Assembly (NCBI GenBank): GCA_037574385.1
Contig: GCA_037574385.1_4529.1
Direction: 5' to 3' (one strand)
Origin: a phage
Length of the DNA: 64,000 nt
Below the pieces are notes generated by a model. That model was not told where the DNA came from, searched no databases, and saw only the letters and a program-made list of their open reading frames with translations. Position numbers and translations under genes: made by a program. Below, piece by piece: positions 16,957 to 63,217 of this stretch. Each line of letters opens with the position of its first letter. Within the stretch, counting starts at the first letter, position 1.

Positions 16957-16972
16957 AAGGGCCGAAGCCCTT
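16957..16972 (-). terminator. UUCG-tetraloop hairpin at 3' end of upstream gene
   Basis: Minus-strand RNA AAGGGC-UUCG-GCCCUU then U-rich. Confidence 0.45.
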
Positions 16973-17396
16973 ATTTAAATTTAATTTTCTGAAGTGCATC
17001 AATTGCAGCCAAACGCCCTTGTTCACTTTTAACTGTAATGACCACATCGCCTGATACGATCACCGAACCATCAACAAATTCTATAGAGTCTTTTTTGAAA
17101 TCGACAGCTGTATCTGGTTCCGGAACTTCTTCAAAGAATTTAAATTCTGCACCATAAATCAGAATATCACCTTGCATACTATGAATAGTTCGGCCATAAT
17201 CGCCTACGGCTTCTACAGCAATCATTGAAACACCGTAACCAATCATCTCTTCCACAATAAAATCTTTAGACAATAAAGTAGTATGCAGATTAGTATTAAG
17301 ACGTTTACCAGTCGTATTAAGAATTCTCAAGAAATTATCTTCCTGTCCTTTGATAATACGGTATTTCTTGCCAATTTCAAAACCTTTAAAAGCCAT
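16971..17396 (-). CDS. hypothetical early protein (141 aa)
   Basis: ORF in operon orientation. Confidence 0.55.
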   Translation of the reverse strand: MAFKGFEIGKKYRIIKGQEDNFLRILNTTGKRLNTNLHTTLLSKDFIVEEMIGYGVSMIAVEAVGDYGRTIHSMQGDILIYGAEFKFFEEVPEPDTAVDFKKDSIEFVDGSVIVSGDVVITVKSEQGRLAAIDALQKIKFK

Positions 17397-17580: not shown

Positions 17581-18009
17581 TTATTCCTTAAAATGTGTTT
17601 TCAACATTTGATACAAAGACCATGCCTGGTCGTTATTTTCGATAGTAATCGTCATCACCGGAAATTCGGTCAATTCATCAAGTTCTTCAGAGTCTTGCTC
17701 TTCAGACGCTTGATATGGATTTCCAACTTCATCAAAAAACTCTGCTTCACTAGTAGAGAGCCAGATAAAGTTTTCATCAAGAATATCACCACCAGTTGCG
17801 TATCCAACCATGCCAGTAGATGTCACAATTTTAGTAGGTCGACCAAGATGGTCAACATCTAATACTTTAAATGGTTCCATGCCAAGACGTCGTGCATAAA
17901 TCCCATTATCAGTGTGGTTTTTAATAAACTCTTCTTGGACACGTTTATCTTTAAATTGGTACCATGAGTTAACGCGGAATTTATTAGCCATTAGTAAGTT
18001 TCCTTCCAA
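17581..18009 (-). CDS. hypothetical early protein (142 aa)
   Basis: ORF in operon orientation. Confidence 0.5.
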
Positions 18010-18275: not shown

Positions 18276-18800
18276 TCATTTTAGCAAAATAAAATCAACT
18301 TGTTCTGCCAATGAACGTCTGAACATTAATTGACAACTTCCGAGGATGAAATCAGGTGCTTCATAGACCGCGATGTAGTATCCTTTAGCTTTCAAGAGTT
18401 CAACATCTACCTGGTCATCAAACCATGCATAAACCGCGTCAACACTTTCAAATCCAAAATAGAACCCTTGAGCCCAATCTTCACTCAATTCAAATGTGTG
18501 CTCAATTCTATAGTATCTTAAGATATTTTGTTCAAGGAGTTTATCTTCATTTACTGTAGGACGATTAGGGACATTATAGTTGTCGCCGTGATGGTAGAAA
18601 TTACCTGAGAGTATTCCATGTTTATCAAGGAACTCCCATGTTTCTTCAGAGTTGTCGGTGCCCGACCAACCGTAAGGTGAGCGAGGTTCTTTATTCCAAG
18701 AGGTTTCCCAAATTCTGACGGCTTTACCGTCTTCGATGGCAATTCCTGGTAATGATTCACGTTGAGTACAAAAACTACGTTCTACGCGGTAAACTAACAT
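18276..18800 (-). CDS. hypothetical early protein (174 aa)
   Basis: ORF preceded by RBS-sequestering hairpin/promoter element. Confidence 0.55.
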   Translation of the reverse strand: MLVYRVERSFCTQRESLPGIAIEDGKAVRIWETSWNKEPRSPYGWSGTDNSEETWEFLDKHGILSGNFYHHGDNYNVPNRPTVNEDKLLEQNILRYYRIEHTFELSEDWAQGFYFGFESVDAVYAWFDDQVDVELLKAKGYYIAVYEAPDFILGSCQLMFRRSLAEQVDFILLK

Positions 18801-18806
18801 ATTATT

Positions 18807-18847
18807 CTCCTCTGGTTGATACGGTTATAATATCAAAACCAGAGGAG
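18807..18847 (-). promoter_or_regulatory. 11-bp stem-loop with -10-like element in loop and Shine-Dalgarno in 3' arm
   Basis: CTCCTCTGGTT ... AACCAGAGGAG perfect inverted repeat; minus-strand 3' arm CAACCAGAGGAG is followed by AATAATATG. Confidence 0.5.
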
Positions 18848-18859
18848 AAGTAAACAACT

Positions 18860-19279
18860 TTATGCGAAAGCAGCCGGGCTATATTTTTTAATTTGGAATT
18901 CAGGAACTACCATGAACTGACCAGCGAAAACGATGTTATAAAGCTTAACACCATCTTCTACCCAACGGTCGCTAATAAATCCGGCGATTTGCTTAGTTTT
19001 CCATGGCGTTCCATCGGTTGCCGCAGCAATAGTGAATTCGTGGTCTTTTTCAACAGAAACTGATCTGCATAGTCCCCATTTGAACGCTTTTTCTTCTGGT
19101 TCAATGAATTGGCTTGAGACGTAGCCAATGTTGCCATCAGCATCACGAACTTTAACTTGATGTGGACTAAAGAGTCCACAACTTACAGAAAGAACTTCAA
19201 CCAACTTCCCAGCAACTTTAGAGCGAGAAGCAACAGATACATATACGTAATCACCAATAGAGAGATTTGCAATATTCAT
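18860..19279 (-). CDS. hypothetical protein, member of a 3-gene tandem paralog family
   Basis: C-terminal region shares ...GFISD.WVEDG.KLYNIVF.G.F.VV... with the next two genes. Confidence 0.6.
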   Translation of the reverse strand: MNIANLSIGDYVYVSVASRSKVAGKLVEVLSVSCGLFSPHQVKVRDADGNIGYVSSQFIEPEEKAFKWGLCRSVSVEKDHEFTIAAATDGTPWKTKQIAGFISDRWVEDGVKLYNIVFAGQFMVVPEFQIKKYSPAAFA

Positions 19280-19288
19280 AATAATTCC

Positions 19289-19774
19289 TTAAGCTTTACG
19301 AGGAGACACATAACGAGTGATTTCGGATTCTTTAACAACTCTGAAGTCACCTAAGAATACGATATTGTATAACTTTTCACCATCTTCAACCCATTGGTCA
19401 CTAATGAAGCCACACATAGTATCAGTTTTGCTTGGATAACCGTATTCATCGATGAAGTCAAATTCTTTATCAGTCTGGAATTCAACGCCTTTGCAAAGGG
19501 CCCATTTGAACTGTACATTATGCTCTGTGGATTCAACTTTTTCTCTTGAAGCAAAAGCACTACTCACAGGCGTTTCCAAGAACTTTGCACGAACATAAGC
19601 AAATTTGGTTTCCTGTGTCCCAAAACTAGGAATAATACGAACCTTTACCTCAGAATCTTCATCTTTAACGCCTTCTTTAAGTTGAATACTTACAACTTCG
19701 ACCAATTTTCCTGCGGCTTTAGAACGAGATTTGTTAGATACGCGAACGATTTCACCAATAATACCAAGATTCAT
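19289..19774 (-). CDS. hypothetical protein, tandem paralog 2 (start moved to MNLGIIGEIV)
   Basis: Track N-terminus (MLYIQGWMEYNEF) is the translated promoter repeat; internal Met is the likely start. Shares the C-terminal motif. Confidence 0.6.
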   Translation of the reverse strand: MNLGIIGEIVRVSNKSRSKAAGKLVEVVSIQLKEGVKDEDSEVKVRIIPSFGTQETKFAYVRAKFLETPVSSAFASREKVESTEHNVQFKWALCKGVEFQTDKEFDFIDEYGYPSKTDTMCGFISDQWVEDGEKLYNIVFLGDFRVVKESEITRYVSPRKA

Positions 19775-19804
19775 AATTTCTCTCTCTTTGTTTAAATTGA
19801 ATTC

Positions 19805-19833
19805 ATTATACTCCATCCATCCTTGGATGTACA
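19805..19833 (-). promoter_or_regulatory. early promoter-hairpin repeat, copy with compensatory stem variant
   Basis: Minus strand TGTACA-[CATCC AAGGAT GGATG]-GAG-TATAAT; stem CATCC/GGATG where the other copies have CAACC/GGTTG. Confidence 0.55.
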
Positions 19834-19836
19834 ACA

Positions 19837-20331
19837 TTAATTAAGGATATTAACCACAGCACTACGTGGAACTACACTAAAATCACCTGCATGAACAACG
19901 TTCAGAAGTTCAACACCGTCTTCAATCCACTGGTCAGTTACCCATCCATTTACTGGACCTGCGAAAGGACGTCGAATTGAAACATATTTACACAGCAAAT
20001 CAGTAGGCTCAATAGGCTTAATCAGAGTACCGTACATACAAGCGATATCCATATCAATACAGATGTCTTTAACGGGTTCTACTTCTTCAATCAACAGTTC
20101 AAAGTCTGTGCTTGGAAGGGCGGTAGTGGAAATTGTACCATATGAATTTTTAATTTCTAAGAATAACCAAGGGCCTTCAGCTTGTTTGATGAAGTTAACA
20201 ATAGTGAAACTATTGCCTTGAGTGGCACCTAAAATTTCACAAAACTTTTCGTAAGCTCGCACTGAAGCACTGTACCAGTTGATTTGTTTTTCGTCTTTCA
20301 GGATGTAAGTAGCCGTAGTATTGATATTCAT
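19837..20331 (-). CDS. hypothetical protein, tandem paralog 3 (164 aa); positional candidate for MotB-like protein
   Basis: Shares C-terminal ...GWVTDQWIEDGVELLNVVHAGDFSVV... motif; T4 has motB in this neighbourhood; not verified. Confidence 0.55.
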   Translation of the reverse strand: MNINTTATYILKDEKQINWYSASVRAYEKFCEILGATQGNSFTIVNFIKQAEGPWLFLEIKNSYGTISTTALPSTDFELLIEEVEPVKDICIDMDIACMYGTLIKPIEPTDLLCKYVSIRRPFAGPVNGWVTDQWIEDGVELLNVVHAGDFSVVPRSAVVNILN

Positions 20332-20362: not shown

Positions 20363-20392
20363 ATTATACTCCAACCATCCTTGGTTGTAAAC
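20363..20392 (-). promoter_or_regulatory. early promoter-hairpin repeat (TTATACTCCAACCATCCTTGGTTGTAAACTG)
   Basis: Minus strand has GTTTACA, ~17-18-nt spacer containing CAACC..GGTTG stem, TATAAT; ~30 nt upstream of the gene start. Confidence 0.55.
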
Positions 20393-20397
20393 TGATT

Positions 20398-21075
20398 TTA
20401 TCGCTGTTTTACACTTAACGGGTCAGGATTCTCAGGGACATCTTCAAGGCCAAGCGCATAACGCTGAGCATATTTTAACATCAAAATATCTTTAGCACAA
20501 TCATGAATACTATCATGGGCAATGAATCCTTTTAGCGTACCCATAGGTAATGGACACATACTTAATCCTCGCGTCAACGAGTAAGCTTCGATTGCCGTAC
20601 GAATATCGCGTTGAGCCCAGAATTTAACCGGTTCTAATTTATCAGTATCAATATCTGGTTCAAGAACACCTTCATCACGATAGAGGTCACGAATCAAATC
20701 GACCAAGATCGGGAAGTCAAAGCTCATACCACGGCACCACATCTGTGATTTCCATTGGTCAACTTTATTAGCTCGACAATAATCTAAAAAGATTTTAATG
20801 CCTTCAAGCGTAGTGACATCGTCTTCAGACGGAGCCAGGTTTTTACGTGCTTCTGCTGATTGTTCTTTCCACCATTTCATAGTGGATTTAGCGAAAACTC
20901 GCTTCCCTTTTTGAGAAGCTAAATTAAATTTAATTCGCTTACCTCGTTGAACAAGTTCTTCAAATGTTTCAACAACTTCAGGGTCCGAATTATATGCAAT
21001 AACCGCAAGGTCAATAACAGCCGCTTTTGATGTATTGCCGAATGTTTCAAAATCTATAATAACATCAGTGCTCAT
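20398..21075 (-). CDS. dexA: exonuclease A (DexA), DnaQ-like 3'-5' exonuclease
   Basis: 225 aa; N-terminal IIDFETFG exonuclease motif; size and position upstream of dda as in T4. Confidence 0.85.
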   Translation of the reverse strand: MSTDVIIDFETFGNTSKAAVIDLAVIAYNSDPEVVETFEELVQRGKRIKFNLASQKGKRVFAKSTMKWWKEQSAEARKNLAPSEDDVTTLEGIKIFLDYCRANKVDQWKSQMWCRGMSFDFPILVDLIRDLYRDEGVLEPDIDTDKLEPVKFWAQRDIRTAIEAYSLTRGLSMCPLPMGTLKGFIAHDSIHDCAKDILMLKYAQRYALGLEDVPENPDPLSVKQR

Positions 21076-21084
21076 AATTTTCTC

Positions 21085-22398
21085 TCAAATAAAATGGACG
21101 TCAAAACGACCACGAGTCGTGCCGACATACAATAACTGTTTAGCTAATTCTGAATCGGCATAATGGATACAAGGTGTATAAACAAAGGCTGTGTCAACAG
21201 ACATACCCTGAGCCTTATGGAAGGTTGATACTGGTAGTGCCTTCACCTTAGTGAACATACGTTTAGCATCCCAGAATTCGCTCCATGGAGCTTTACCACC
21301 TTTATTCCAGAATTTGTATGTTTCTGCAGTCTTAGCCAAAAACAAATTGAATTTATAAAGCTCTTCTTCAGAAGAAATAACCTTTATATCTTCGCGGATG
21401 TATTCTTCATCATCCCCATATGTTTCTACTGTAAGATTCCAGTATCGTATCATATACTCGCCAGAAACACCACGTGCTTTAACGAATGTAGACGTTTCTA
21501 CAGCATCTCGAATACGAACGAATTGCCCGTTATTGAAAAGCATTTCGGTCATATTTTTGCCATCTAGCTTATATGTCTTAGTAAATGGCTCTTGTAGAAC
21601 AATGACCTCGTCTTTAATAAATGGCTTTTCTGTTTCAAGAAGTTTTCGGCGAATAATTGAATTCAACTTATCCACCGACTTATTTGTGAATGCCATCATT
21701 CGATTTTCGAAAAGGTCTTCAGGAGTTTTAACGACGTTAAAATAGTTCATCATATACGATTTAAGGTCTGTATATCCATGAACACCGTGCCCATCAACTA
21801 CTTTATCATAAATCCATTTGCCATTACGAATATCGGTCGCAACATCAATAATTGGTGCATTGCTACGTTTAACTTCTGTAAGGTTGCATTGCACGAAGTC
21901 TTTGTGAGTGAAGAAAGGACTTAGATACGCAGTTGATTCGCCGGGGTCCACTGGACGAATCTGACATCGGTCACCAATTCCAATTACTGTACACCATTTA
22001 GGGATACTAGCTAACATTATTTTAAACAGAGAACGGTCACACATTGACGCTTCATCAAATAACAGTACACGACACAAGGCTAAGTCGGGAACCTTTTTCT
22101 GTTCAAATAATACGTTTTCTTCGTATGTAGTTGGGTTGATTTTAAGAATGCTATGAATAGTCGATGCTTCTTGTCCAGCAAGTTTGCTTAGAACCTTTTT
22201 AGCAGCGTGTGTTGGTGCTGCTAAAATAATACCTGATTCTCCAGAAGAAATAAGGGCTTCAACGATGAATCTAGTAAGGGTTGTTTTACCTGTACCCGCA
22301 GGTCCATTAATAGTTACGTGATGTTTCTTTTCTTTAATAGCTTTCATAACAACGTTGAAGGCGTTTTTCTGGCCTTCAGTCAAGTCATCAAATGTCAT
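21085..22398 (-). CDS. dda: Dda DNA helicase (SF1)
   Basis: 437 aa; Walker A INGPAGTGKTT; matches T4 Dda in length and order. Confidence 0.9.
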   Translation of the reverse strand: MTFDDLTEGQKNAFNVVMKAIKEKKHHVTINGPAGTGKTTLTRFIVEALISSGESGIILAAPTHAAKKVLSKLAGQEASTIHSILKINPTTYEENVLFEQKKVPDLALCRVLLFDEASMCDRSLFKIMLASIPKWCTVIGIGDRCQIRPVDPGESTAYLSPFFTHKDFVQCNLTEVKRSNAPIIDVATDIRNGKWIYDKVVDGHGVHGYTDLKSYMMNYFNVVKTPEDLFENRMMAFTNKSVDKLNSIIRRKLLETEKPFIKDEVIVLQEPFTKTYKLDGKNMTEMLFNNGQFVRIRDAVETSTFVKARGVSGEYMIRYWNLTVETYGDDEEYIREDIKVISSEEELYKFNLFLAKTAETYKFWNKGGKAPWSEFWDAKRMFTKVKALPVSTFHKAQGMSVDTAFVYTPCIHYADSELAKQLLYVGTTRGRFDVHFI

Positions 22399-59891: not shown

Positions 59892-60196
59892 TATAATGTT
59901 CTCTCAAATTTGTGGAAGCATTTACGGCATTTCAATTTCAGGTTATCAGTGGTCCAGTTAACCAATTGAACCTGAATAGTTCCACATTCCGGACACGGAT
60001 GTTTTGCTGCCGATTTGGCAGCATTTTCACGTCGTTCAACCATTTTCATTATTTCGTTCCATGCCGGAGGAACGAACTCTTCTTTACCATGAATTTTATC
60101 TCGCTGAACAAATTCAATCTTTGAACTATCGTCAATAAACTTAACTAAGCTGTGATTAGTGTTCATATCAATATCCTCTAAAAGACGTAGTTTCAT
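59891..60196 (-). CDS. zinc-ribbon protein (101 aa)
   Basis: CPECG ... CRKC four-Cys pattern in C-terminal half. Confidence 0.5.
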   Translation of the reverse strand: MKLRLLEDIDMNTNHSLVKFIDDSSKIEFVQRDKIHGKEEFVPPAWNEIMKMVERRENAAKSAAKHPCPECGTIQVQLVNWTTDNLKLKCRKCFHKFERTL

Positions 60197-61146
60197 TATA
60201 ACACCTCAATGGCATTTCGTAAACCATCCGCTTTCGCATTCAGAGCTTTTAACGATTTAGTTTGTTCTTTAATCTGGGCTTCGACTTCTTTCAGACGAGA
60301 TTTGAGATATTCACGTTCTTCTCTTAAGTTATCAACTTTTTCTGCTTTAGGCTCTTTAATAGGCTTAGGCTTATACTCGTTAGGGTTCTTCAGTTTAATT
60401 TTAATTCGAGAACTGAATAACATTGAACCGTTATCTTCGGTTTCGTCGAACATTTCAACAACATCCATAGTCTGTAACATCATGCGAAGTTTATAAGACA
60501 GAGAACGAACGGTTTTATTGTGCTTCTTAATTTCTTCAGCTTTCATGGTACCGAGATTACGTGAGTAGTAATAAGGAACCTGGATATCAATTGATAACGA
60601 CGCGGTGCCATTACCAGTTGGTTTGAATACTGCAGTAACCCAATCTTTAACATGAACTTTATTTGTACGATCATCGCCGCCTGTGAATAATTTACATGAA
60701 TGTTTAAAAAGCATATTCACTTGGTTATTGAATTCACAAGCAAATTTATCAGCAAATTTAGTTTCAGGAATGGTAGATAACCAATCAGCCAAATGAGTCT
60801 TTTTAACATCATTAACAATAGTGAATTCAACCAAATCGGTTTTAGATGTCACAGATTTAATAAAGCTCGGCTTCATAAAGTTTTTAATGTTATCGCGAGC
60901 TACAGTAGAAGATAATAAACGAGAACGTTTGAACCATTGAAGCAGTGTCCCTAATGAATGAGAATACGCATTCTGAGTATCTTTACAGATATGATTTTCT
61001 TGGCCTGTGTATGTACCAAAATCGCGAAGAATACCACTTACTACATCTCGGTGTGGAACATCAAATCCTAGTGCACCAGTAGCGCGCTGAGCATGAACGT
61101 TAGCGATAAGACCGGCAAAGTATTCAATGTAATGTGAACGTGTCAT
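60196..61146 (-). CDS. hypothetical protein with C-terminal coiled coil (316 aa)
   Basis: Globular N-domain plus heptad-like C-terminus (LREEREYLKSRLKEVEAQIKEQTKSLKALNAKADGL); own promoter repeat upstream. Confidence 0.6.
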   Translation of the reverse strand: MTRSHYIEYFAGLIANVHAQRATGALGFDVPHRDVVSGILRDFGTYTGQENHICKDTQNAYSHSLGTLLQWFKRSRLLSSTVARDNIKNFMKPSFIKSVTSKTDLVEFTIVNDVKKTHLADWLSTIPETKFADKFACEFNNQVNMLFKHSCKLFTGGDDRTNKVHVKDWVTAVFKPTGNGTASLSIDIQVPYYYSRNLGTMKAEEIKKHNKTVRSLSYKLRMMLQTMDVVEMFDETEDNGSMLFSSRIKIKLKNPNEYKPKPIKEPKAEKVDNLREEREYLKSRLKEVEAQIKEQTKSLKALNAKADGLRNAIEVL

Positions 61147-61174
61147 AATATTTTCCTCTCGTTAAGATAGATTC

Positions 61175-61203
61175 ATTATACTCCAACCATCCTTGGTTGT
61201 AAA
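61175..61203 (-). promoter_or_regulatory. early promoter-hairpin repeat
   Basis: Identical to the 20363-20392 copy (ATTATACTCCAACCATCCTTGGTTGTAAA). Confidence 0.55.
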
Positions 61204-61208
61204 CTGAT

Positions 61209-62165
61209 TTATGATTTTAATGCATTCATTGCGTTAAAAAGTTTAGAGTACTGCAACTGGAGATTGGTCACCACCTGTTGAGCATCACGAAGCTTAGCTT
61301 GTGCCTTATCAAGTTCAACAGACAGTTGGTCTACAGTAGCCTTGATTTGATTGTAATGATAATCTTCAGCCGGAAGAAGGTCATTAGAAACATTTAGTTT
61401 TGCTGCCGACAGTTTGCACACATTTGGCAAACCTTTAAACATACCAGATTGTGCTGGAGAATATGCGCCTAGAACCTCTGCATTACCGACTGGTGTTGAT
61501 GTAATATTGCCTTCGAACGTTGCATTTTCCTTTTTAAGATTTTTATAATATTCAGAGTCTTTGTGCCACCATGGTGCAGGAACCTTTTTACCAATAGATA
61601 CACGAGCCTGGATAGCGATATGGCCCTTATTCTTGATAGGGTCGATAATATTAAGCTCACGAGAATAAATTGCTTTAATCTGGTGGATATTATCACCTAA
61701 AACTTCCAACGCTTGGTGGAATACACGAGCAACGTTATCATTCTTAGGTTTATACGTAAGAGTGAACTCGTTCTCACTGATAACCATGGTTTCTAACTTA
61801 TCGTAAGTATATTTCAAATGCTTCATGTTAATTGCTTGAGGACGAATACGAGAAGCAATGGCCATCAGATTGTTAAGGTTATTTCTGAACTGTTTAGCAA
61901 AATATTGTCCATAACCGCCAATACAAAAATTACGAAGTTTCTGTTTGGCCAGTAAACGACTGAACTCACCGTTTTTAATGAACTCTTTAACGGGTGTGTT
62001 AGTAACACATTCAAATTGAGTAAACTTACGAGAAGTAATCCCATAATATGAACAGATTTCCTCAATCTCTTCAGGAGTCTTTACAGGCATACGGATAGGA
62101 TTAGGTCCTGGAGTATATGCGTTCGAGGTAAATTCTTTGATAAGTTCTCTACGTGTAATAGCCAT
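61209..62165 (-). CDS. hypothetical protein with C-terminal coiled coil (start moved to MAITRREL)
   Basis: Track N-terminus (MMYNQGWLEYNNF) is translated promoter repeat; C-terminal LSVELDKAQAKLRDAQQVVTNLQLQYSKL coiled coil. Confidence 0.6.
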   Translation of the reverse strand: MAITRRELIKEFTSNAYTPGPNPIRMPVKTPEEIEEICSYYGITSRKFTQFECVTNTPVKEFIKNGEFSRLLAKQKLRNFCIGGYGQYFAKQFRNNLNNLMAIASRIRPQAINMKHLKYTYDKLETMVISENEFTLTYKPKNDNVARVFHQALEVLGDNIHQIKAIYSRELNIIDPIKNKGHIAIQARVSIGKKVPAPWWHKDSEYYKNLKKENATFEGNITSTPVGNAEVLGAYSPAQSGMFKGLPNVCKLSAAKLNVSNDLLPAEDYHYNQIKATVDQLSVELDKAQAKLRDAQQVVTNLQLQYSKLFNAMNALKS

Positions 62166-62192
62166 TTTATATTCCTCATGTTGAAAAAAATT

Positions 62193-62222
62193 ATTATACT
62201 CCAACCATCCTTGGTTGTACAT
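62193..62222 (-). promoter_or_regulatory. early promoter-hairpin repeat
   Basis: ATTATACTCCAACCATCCTTGGTTGTACA; same element with -35 variant. Confidence 0.55.
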
Positions 62223-63217
62223 CATTCCTTAAGAAGTTTTACTACCTGAATAAGATTAGCTCGTTCTGTTTTATTTTTACCGTTCAGTCCGGCCAATCGC
62301 GAGATTTCATCGTCAGTTTGTTGAATAGTTACATTAAGTTCATTAATCAAAGCTTCAAAGTATTTGATTTGCTCAGCATGTTTTGATTCAAATTTCTGAA
62401 CCGGAATAACGTCTTGGTTCAGTTCATCAATAAGGTCTTTAAGAGCATCTTCTTGGTTGATATCATATTCAACTTCTTTTATTTCTTCAACGAGCTCGTC
62501 TTTATATCTAACGTCTTTTAGTCCTGGTGCTGGTCCTGAAATCTCTTCTTTAAGAGTACAAACATATCCAATACGGTATCCAGTTCCGTCTCGCTTGATA
62601 TCAACTTCGTCGATAAATCCACAATGTTTAAGTCCAGAGCCGATTATGTCAAAATATCCTTGACGTCGTCCTTCAAACGTTACACGAACTACTAAGACAG
62701 TTTTGCCACCAACCTTTTGAAGCTCACATTTATAAAAGTCTGTTGAACCTGAATAACGTGGATGAGTTTTAAAGTTCATCTGACGATCTAAGCCCATTTG
62801 TAAACGTGCTGTTACGGCCATAAAACGTGTTTGGTTCTCGTTAAGATGAGCAACGATCCATTTCAAAGGCATTTTACACTGTTCACGTCCGAACAAATCA
62901 GTACGTCCTAGATTACGCAGGATGTTGTTAGAGTTAATCATCGACAGAACGTTAAGTTTATTCAGCGCGCTGAAGATTCCATCAGCCATTGATTTTCCAT
63001 AACCTTTACACGCTTTAATAAGTGCTCGCGGCAGATTAGCATAGATTTCGGACGGCATATGAAAATCAAATTTACTAGTCAGTAATTGATGAACTTGGAT
63101 AGCAATTTGCTCATAATTAAGTGCTCTGCGATCGTTATGGTCTTTAAACCACACTTTAATCTGTGAAGCACATAAACCGTTAATTTCATGTTTTACCGCA
63201 TCAGATGTAATGCTCAT
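62222..63217 (-). CDS. hypothetical protein with long C-terminal coiled coil (331 aa)
   Basis: C-terminal ~100 aa highly charged heptad-like; preceded by variant promoter-hairpin (ATTATAACCCGTCCTTGGGTAAA). Confidence 0.6.
   Translation of the reverse strand: MSITSDAVKHEINGLCASQIKVWFKDHNDRRALNYEQIAIQVHQLLTSKFDFHMPSEIYANLPRALIKACKGYGKSMADGIFSALNKLNVLSMINSNNILRNLGRTDLFGREQCKMPLKWIVAHLNENQTRFMAVTARLQMGLDRQMNFKTHPRYSGSTDFYKCELQKVGGKTVLVVRVTFEGRRQGYFDIIGSGLKHCGFIDEVDIKRDGTGYRIGYVCTLKEEISGPAPGLKDVRYKDELVEEIKEVEYDINQEDALKDLIDELNQDVIPVQKFESKHAEQIKYFEALINELNVTIQQTDDEISRLAGLNGKNKTERANLIQVVKLLKE

Follow-up and report, generated by a model that had tools for sequence, protein, structure and literature searches.

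The three tandem genes at positions 18860-20331 very probably form the motB.1–motB–motB-like early-gene cluster of an RB69-like Mosigvirus, in which homology of the C-terminal domain (CTD) is combined with domain shuffling and a proposed division of labor. The identification is based on the DNA identity of about 98% between the window (the whole stretch of 64,000 nucleotides analyzed here) and the annotated Mosigvirus phages phiE142, phiC120, and Shf125875. It is also based on Pfam and PHROG matches, on BLASTP comparison with T4 proteins, and on the survey of MotB homologs by Patterson-West et al. 2021 (PMC7827196). Judged by its sequence, the window is that of a Mosigvirus, an RB69-like T-even phage. 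The Mosigvirus records label ORF3, ORF2, and ORF1 as "RB69 motB.1", "MotB", and "RB69 ORF010c, similar to motB", respectively, and the annotation "similar to motB" is carried by the ORF1 counterparts in both Shf125875 and RB69.

The gene family, its two-domain logic, and the extra RB69-type copy are already published and are covered by Pfam and PHROGs. In section 3.2 of PMC7827196, 102 MotB homologs were aligned and sorted into four groups, which include proteins that are MotB-like in both domains and a 29-aa peptide of RB69. MotB and MotB.1 combine a common CTD with N-terminal domains (NTDs) that differ, and RB69 encodes motB twice and motB.1 once (PMC7827196). Kim et al. [quoted passage not shown]

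The Cluster and Its Genomic Neighborhood

The window holds a block of T-even early genes on the minus strand at 15-23 kb (Table 1). The initial annotation had described a local paralog family in an early region, and this was borne out: the three genes sit between dexA and cef in the early (pre-replicative) region, which is the locus of T4 motB as well. After the motB.2 homolog, the genes cef, goF, 39.2, an RB69-ORF005c-like gene, and the fused 60+39 topoisomerase subunit follow in transcription order.

Table 1. Features of the motB.1–motB–motB-like cluster and adjacent genes (positions in the window).
Feature	Positions	Strand	Evidence or context
dda	21085-22398	minus	upstream of dexA in transcription order
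dexA	20398-21075	minus	directly before ORF3 in transcription order
Early sigma-70-type promoter of ORF3, TTTACA-N17-TATAAT	20363-20391	minus	11/12 consensus matches; top site in 3.3-kb scan
ORF3, MotB.1-type protein, 164 aa	19837-20331	minus	annotated RB69 motB.1; phrog_2333, 1.3e-82
Shared CTD of ORF3, residues 107-164, EPTDLLCK...GWVTDQWIEDGVELLNVVHAGDFSVVPRSAVVNILN	19840-20013	minus	CTD alignment
Early promoter of ORF2, TGTACA-N17-TATAAT	19805-19833	minus	with the ORF3 promoter, best two sites in 3.3-kb scan
ORF2, MotB ortholog, 161 aa	19289-19774	minus	58% identical to T4 MotB; phrog_1671, 3e-70
ORF1, second full-length MotB paralog (RB69 ORF010c), 139 aa	18860-19279	minus	44% identical to ORF2
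13-bp perfect hairpin directly downstream of ORF1	18805-18849	minus	inverted repeat and folding
motB.2 homolog	18276-18800	minus	next gene after ORF1

The gene order in the window, dexA-motB.1-motB-motB'-motB.2, is unlike the order dexA-motB.2-motB.1-motB of T4 and some Tequatroviruses. ORF3 follows directly after dexA, whereas motB.2 intervenes in T4. The set of three genes is present in at least 152 phage records. These include phages classed as Tequatrovirus, and the second motB is therefore not peculiar to RB69.

In T4, motB and motB.1 are the genes that truly correspond to the three ORFs. The genes dexA.1 and dexA.2, which had been suggested as T4 comparators, are unrelated, and no similarity to them was found by BLASTP against T4 proteins. 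The RB69 annotation gives the old synonyms dexA.-3 (motB) and dexA.-2 (motB.1), and also dexA.-1; these synonyms probably explain why dexA.1 and dexA.2 were named.

Significance of the Shared C-Terminal Segment

The three ORFs exist on the minus strand as described, the C-terminal motifs quoted for them are present, and their similarity is far beyond chance. We ran the alignment that had been proposed as a check for similarity below significance, and the pairwise E-values were 1e-10 to 2e-30. ORF1 and ORF2 align over their whole length (BLASTP, 44% identity, E=2e-30). ORF3 aligns at the C-terminus only, both with ORF2 (44% over 36 aa, E=3e-10) and with ORF1 (55% over 29 aa, E=1e-10). The initial description of divergent N-termini thus applies to ORF3 relative to the other two, but not to ORF1 and ORF2 relative to each other. 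The profile PF17613 of Pfam (motB, "Modifier of transcription"; gathering score 25 bits) matches ORF1, ORF2, and ORF3 with 78.9, 182, and 35.3 bits, all above the gathering score. Its match to ORF3 is confined to residues 84-159 and profile positions 78-153.

A tblastn scan of the 64-kb window with the three motifs located exactly three copies, one in each ORF, and no fourth. The 29-aa "Category 3" peptide of RB69 was considered as an extra copy but is the tail of a motB.1 gene with a frameshift. It is extremely unlikely that the similarity is due to chance or composition, or that the ORFs are not genes. Against this stand the pairwise E-values, the Pfam scores over the gathering threshold, the hundreds of homologs, and the purifying selection on the ORFs.

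Among 5.8 billion proteins, 220 homologs of ORF3 and 125 of ORF2 were found at E<=1e-3. When 1.84 billion representative proteins (50% identity) were searched with the profile, no more than 32 clusters matched, 23 with E<=1e-10. The good matches are all proteins of 100-250 aa in which the domain is always C-terminal. Four long proteins (601-934 aa) matched via short repeats, for example GYQWQKNGV and GYATEQWV; of these, P0258 and P0260 were inspected and judged spurious. The remote member P0256, the only one for which the context was looked up, lies on a metagenomic contig with the same motB-cef-...-topoisomerase synteny. The MotB CTD family appears to be narrow, and its named members belong to T4-like phages.

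Two Full-Length MotB Proteins and One Domain-Shuffled MotB.1

ORF2 resembles T4 MotB ("Category 1" in PMC7827196) over its full length, with 58% identity across residues 6-155 (E=8e-60). ORF1 shares this layout and is 38% identical to T4 MotB (residues 6-139, E=9e-26). As in T4 MotB, a KOW-like NTD with the SRSKAAGKLVEV motif is followed by a CTD with a DQWVEDG..LYN.VF core. In ORF2, the basic KOW-like NTD comprises residues 1-68, a variable linker residues 69-87, and the shared CTD residues 88-161. We prefer the ATG at 19774, which gives 161 aa, as the start of ORF2, because translation of the mechanically called 182-aa ORF would start within or upstream of the gene's own promoter (the −10 box is at 19805-19810). 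ORF1 joins its KOW-like NTD to the CTD through a much shorter inter-domain linker. It lacks about 20 linker residues relative to T4 MotB, and its NTD is net neutral.

Sequence comparison indicates that an old tandem duplication gave rise to ORF1 and ORF2, which are paralogous over their full length. The dS between them is around 1.6, which is saturated; the duplication is therefore old and without recent gene conversion. This does not fit the recent duplication that a local expansion would suggest.

The layout of ORF3 is different from that of T4 MotB, with which it aligns only in its C-terminal part. A predicted LSm/SH3-like NTD (residues 1-85) is followed by the linker motif DMDIACMYGTLIKP (residues 86-106), which is conserved and has low model confidence, and by the shared CTD. 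ORF3 aligns over 134 aa with T4 MotB.1 (37% identity, E=1.7e-26). It shares with the MotB.1 of T4 and RB69 ("Category 2") the predicted helix-plus-five-strand NTD, the MotB-type CTD, and the position beside motB. [quoted passage not shown] The goF homolog in the window matches phrog_622 (3.1e-37), and a neighboring ORF (16971-17396) weakly links phrog_622 with phrog_2333, at 1e-4. ORF3 is thus domain-shuffled, with an LSm/SH3-like NTD of the GoF/MotB.1/Frd.2 type joined to a MotB CTD, and is not a third diverged duplicate as the description of three tandem paralogs had it.

The 143-aa MotB.1 of Tequatrovirus lacks the extra conserved segment of the 164-aa ORF3. ORF3 is intact in 8 loci. In contrast, motB.1 is frameshifted inside the CTD in the reference records of both T4 and RB69. 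The 119-aa MotB.1 of the T4 reference record is the product of a one-base frameshift; other T4 records, MT984581 among them, have 143 aa and a full CTD. Published negative results with the 13.8-kDa MotB.1 may therefore concern a truncated protein.

Predicted Structure and Charge of the Domains

We built AlphaFold2 models of ORF3 and ORF2 on alignments of 50 and 51 sequences, respectively (mean pLDDT 78.8 and 80). Each model consists of two beta-domains with a low-confidence or disordered linker between them. For the CTD of ORF2 (residues 96-156), the model gives five strands, the last of which is preceded by a helix of three residues (block-mean pLDDT 86-94). The same pattern is predicted at residues 116-163 of ORF3 (block-mean pLDDT 82-90 for its CTD, residues 107-164). 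In the NTD of ORF3, strands are predicted at residues 8-11, 42-49, 55-61, 67-73, and 80-83, together with a helix at 24-37.

The shared CTD has 58-75 residues and corresponds to the C-terminal half of PF17613. Its core is G-[WFY]-[IV]-[ST]-D-Q-W-[IV]-E-[DEN]-G-x-x-L-x-N-[IV]-V, and the residues L, D, W, E, G, L, N, V, and V are invariant in the CTD-only alignment. The first hairpin of the CTD is 16 residues longer in the MotB type than in the MotB.1 type.

Small SH3-like beta-barrels (Tudor, chromo, PWWP, and KOW) are likewise five-stranded and have a one-turn helix just ahead of the final strand, as predicted for both domains. For the CTD, this predicted resemblance is at the level of the fold only, without sequence similarity. 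The CTD profile gave 0 matches to PDB chains at E<=10, and a fold search of BFVD returned only family members and KOW proteins. No sign of an aromatic cage or of methyl-lysine reading was seen in the CTD. An OB fold (a cold-shock-like DNA-binding domain) was proposed for the CTD from HHpred in section 3.1 of PMC7827196. In our models, the CTD looks more like an SH3/Tudor-type barrel than like an OB fold. This difference from the published proposal is not decisive, since the models are predictions and the aligned ranges are unreported.

The same CTD is found behind several kinds of N-terminal part. These are a KOW domain, one GoF-like domain (ORF3 and the 143-145-aa Tequatrovirus MotB.1), two GoF-like domains in some proteins, a DMDIA.MYGTL motif plus a GoF-like domain (proteins of about 180 aa), and additional N-terminal domains (proteins of 245-252 aa). 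KOW domains are joined to a MotB.1-type CTD in Klebsiella and Enterobacter phages. In 51 MotB-type proteins, the KOW NTD has a median net charge of +5, and the CTD has one of −2. MotB.1-type CTDs have a median of −3.5, and the proteins that carry them one of −7. The whole of ORF3 has a net charge of −9 and a pI of 4.5.

Promoters and Expression Signals

The promoter-hairpin repeat that the initial annotation had assigned to two of the genes is real for ORF3 and ORF2 as a 29-nt promoter with a palindromic spacer; a stem-loop upstream of the promoter is not part of it. Inside this spacer, a perfect inverted repeat of 6 bp flanks a 4-nt loop. Three copies carry CAACCA-AGGA-TGGTTG. The ORF2 copy carries CATCCA-AGGA-TGGATG; both of its arms are changed, and the pairing is preserved. 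Two further copies of the 26-nt promoter core lie at 61175 and 62193, against a chance expectation of 0 matches. The ORF3 promoter is conserved in the loci of RB69, Shf125875, HX01, moha, and AV112. The 60-70 nt upstream of the −35 box are not conserved between the promoter copies. A stem-loop was sought upstream of the four copies, and the folding there is no better than that of shuffled sequences (z = 0.20, 0.41, −1.16, and 0.78).

This arrangement can be compared with the promoter-early stem-loop (PeSL) cassettes known from T4-type phages (Arbiol 2010, PMC2839356; Comeau 2014, PMC4122927). These likewise have a repeated, near-identical early promoter, TTTACW-N17-TAYWAT, before small non-essential genes in a plastic region, and the gene order around the promoter likewise varies between related phages. 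However, PeSL has a stem-loop upstream of the promoter. The window promoters are without one (folding z +0.2 to −1.2), and their only inverted repeat (6 bp) is inside the −35/−10 spacer. A PeSL-type promoter/terminator cassette was rejected because the region lacks the upstream stem-loop and folds no better than shuffled sequence.

From these signals, ORF3 would be transcribed from its own early promoter, and ORF2 and ORF1 would form a bicistron transcribed from the second, nearly identical promoter. ORF1 starts 9 nt after the stop codon of ORF2 with the Shine-Dalgarno sequence AAGGA, and the 3.3-kb scan gave no promoter of its own. The genes appear to have no terminator between them, so that read-through from upstream promoters is likely.

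The hairpin directly downstream of ORF1 has a folding energy of −24.2 kcal/mol (z=−5.9), and 0/200 shuffles were as stable. It is predicted to sequester the Shine-Dalgarno sequence of the motB.2 homolog. A promoter-like sequence, TTTACT-16-TATTAT, is present at 18827-18854, with its −10 box in the hairpin loop. This hairpin is the boundary of the cluster and is outside the paralog family.

Purifying Selection and Recombinational Mosaicism

Values of dN/dS were obtained by the pairwise Nei-Gojobori method from the window and 7-8 orthologous loci per gene: RB69 (ORF1 and ORF2 only), Shf125875, SF, HX01, moha, AV112, CAM-21, and 11B_SA_NWU. All three genes are under purifying selection, with median dN/dS of 0.16-0.22 (0.16 for ORF1, 0.22 for ORF2, and 0.17 for ORF3). 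The CTD is the most constrained segment in ORF2 (0.13, and 0.57 for the linker) and in ORF3 (0.09, and 0.35 for the linker). In ORF1, the CTD (0.15) and NTD (0.14) are alike. Positive selection was not seen by this method in the 8-9 orthologous loci. The diversification mentioned in the initial annotation, if taken as ongoing adaptive divergence, is not supported, every gene being under purifying selection.

The variation that is observed has another character. The NTD of ORF2 is 85% identical to that of T4 MotB and 64% to that of RB69, whereas its CTD is 96% identical to RB69 and 49% to T4, with the switch near nucleotides 110-150. In comparison with T4 MotB, the motB gene of the window thus reads as a mosaic of a T4-like NTD and an RB69-like CTD. 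ORF1 has allelic variants of a loop, SVSCGLFSPHQ and SVSDPVFGRNE. The variation at the locus is recombinational mosaicism and not accelerated substitution.

These results bear on the reading of the cluster as a recent local expansion, a host-interaction module whose copies are driven to diversify by positive selection in an arms race. Tandem paralogs in a plastic early region, swapped NTDs, allelic variants (the ORF1 loop and the ORF2 NTD mosaic), and a gene order unlike that of T4 all agree with it. We nevertheless consider it very unlikely, since dN/dS is well below 1 in every domain and only the disordered linkers reach 0.35-0.57. In addition, ORF1 and ORF2 are saturated at synonymous sites, the three-gene set is kept across the phage records counted above, and mosaicism describes the variation observed.

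Possible Functions of the Three Proteins

T4 MotB binds DNA tightly and non-specifically, is toxic in E. coli, and gives a two-fold benefit in burst size (PMC6070864, PMC7827196). It co-purifies with H-NS and StpA and alters H-NS footprints, and H-NS-repressed host genes are up-regulated by it (PMC6070864, PMC7827196). The host-interaction role proposed for the cluster in the initial annotation agrees with this action of the founding member on the host nucleoid and H-NS. DNA binding, toxicity, and the H-NS effects were demonstrated for T4 MotB only. Since ORF2 has 58% identity and the same architecture, it would share the T4 function: it would bind DNA non-specifically, join H-NS/StpA-bound DNA, relieve H-NS repression, and improve burst size. 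By the same analogy, ORF1 probably shares this function. ORF3, with the same CTD and an LSm-like NTD, may have a related but distinct task. Deletion of T4 motB.1 gave no laboratory phenotype (PMC12152347).

According to the 2021 paper, either domain of MotB could be the DNA binder (PMC7827196). The basic KOW NTD is likelier to be the DNA-binding part than the acidic CTD and may be the main nucleic-acid-binding part, although DNA binding can be predicted only poorly from net charge. In an alternative reading, the shared CTD itself binds DNA through an OB fold, all three proteins are nucleoid-associated, and the cluster raises dosage or broadens DNA-binding properties. The published HHpred assignment favors this, and so does the conservation of the CTD, which exceeds that of every other part of ORF2 and ORF3. 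However, the CTD is net acidic in most members of both types, ORF3 as a whole is strongly acidic, and none of the invariant residues D, W, E, G, L, N, and V is basic. We regard DNA binding by the CTD as unlikely.

We prefer the KOW NTD for DNA binding, and the acidic, strongly conserved CTD could then be a module that the three proteins have in common and use, behind different NTDs, to self-associate or to dock onto a shared partner. A more specific form of this proposal is tentative, and we would give it only a low chance. Here, the CTD would not bind nucleic acids but would serve for docking or oligomerization, as an SH3/Tudor-like barrel that bears a conserved D-x-W-x-E stripe. It would form mixed complexes of MotB, the second MotB, and MotB.1, or bind one host target such as H-NS/StpA filaments. 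The conserved disordered DMDIACMYGTL motif could be a ligand of the barrel. If the CTD is such a docking module, different activities would be brought to the same place by the swapped NTDs, with KOW acting on DNA and the LSm-like domain on RNA or another ligand.

The by-products of this analysis, including the frameshifted reference records, may be useful to workers on host takeover by T4. The family gives clean cases of domain-level recombination between T-even lineages. An acidic, constrained CTD of apparent SH3/Tudor type redirects the question of which domain of MotB binds DNA and what the target of the CTD may be.

Recombination and transcription signals at the motB locus

The motB gene of the window arose by recombination. 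Its DNA resembles that of T4 over nucleotides 1-120 (81-90% identity, vs 53-76% with RB69) and that of RB69 from nucleotide 240 on (85-98% identity, vs 45-78% with T4).

Features of the motB locus and of a second early region (window coordinates)
Feature	Position	Strand	Details
RB69-ORF005c-like gene	16971-17396
goF	17581-18009
Hairpin before motB.2 homolog	18805-18849		13-bp perfect stem; -24.2 kcal/mol, z=-5.9
Promoter-like site	18827-18854		TTTACT-16-TATTAT; -10 box within hairpin loop
motB (ORF2)	19289-19774	-
29-nt early promoter, four copies	19805-19833, 20363-20391, 61175-61203, 62193-62221
Motif in MotB.1-type ORF3	20014-20076		D-M-D-I-A-C-M-Y-G-T-L-I-K-P; residues 86-106
Three tandem ORFs	60196-63217	-	316, 338, 331 aa

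The Shine-Dalgarno sequence of the motB.2 homolog, GAGGAG, is buried in the stem of the hairpin that precedes this gene. With the stem over the Shine-Dalgarno sequence and the -10 box in the loop, translation of the motB.2 homolog would be masked on read-through transcripts, and transcripts initiated inside the hairpin would be open for translation. Other T4 genes are known with such an arrangement of a hairpin-masked Shine-Dalgarno sequence and an internal promoter. The site is kept in the seven Mosigvirus loci examined.

In the repeated early promoter, a 6-bp palindromic hairpin makes up the spacer, with GGAG after it. In the copy before motB a double change is present and the pairing is kept. 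The spacer of the T4 motB promoter also contains an inverted repeat (ACTCT...AGAGT), but one that differs from the spacer palindrome of the window. The spacer palindrome may serve as a protein site, act in read-through transcripts as an RNA element, or be a hotspot of recombination. The same promoter precedes two of the three tandem ORFs at the far end of the window, which may be another early-region set of tandem paralogs.

MotB.1-type proteins and their reference records

The motif in ORF3 is kept in many architectures that carry the C-terminal domain (CTD) common to the three tandem MotB-type proteins. It lies ahead of the CTD in ORF3; in proteins of the 180-aa class it comes before the GoF-like domain that is inserted there; the 143-aa Tequatrovirus MotB.1 is without it. 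Because AF2 confidence is low at these residues (block-mean pLDDT 44-59), it may act as a short linear interaction motif. Both the RB69-ORF005c-like gene and goF match phrog_622, and the former also matches phrog_2333, the family of ORF3, weakly (1e-4). This neighbourhood thus contains at least three proteins with a GoF/MotB.1-type N-terminal domain.

In the RB69 reference (NC_004928, 3870-4380), two frame changes within the CTD split motB.1 into a 132-aa CDS and the 29-aa RB69p012. This 29-aa product is evidently what Patterson-West 2021 (PMC7827196) classed as the 'Category 3' peptide. The gene is intact (164-169 aa) in the window and seven other loci.

Sequence comparison also revealed one extra G in motB.1 of the T4 reference (NC_000866.4, 4142-4660; ATTGGAAGATGG vs ATTGAAGATGG). 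As a result, the annotated MotB.1 (119 aa, 13.8 kDa) breaks off midway through the conserved CTD core, its last residues being ...DQWIGRWR*. The record of T4 MT984581 encodes an intact 143-aa MotB.1 (378-809), and by alignment the region is 518 nt, not 519, in twelve further T4/T4T records and in RB55/RB59. Kim et al. 2025 obtained motB.1 by synthesis and gave a size of 13.8 kDa (PMC12152347); their negative MotB.1 results may therefore concern a truncated protein.
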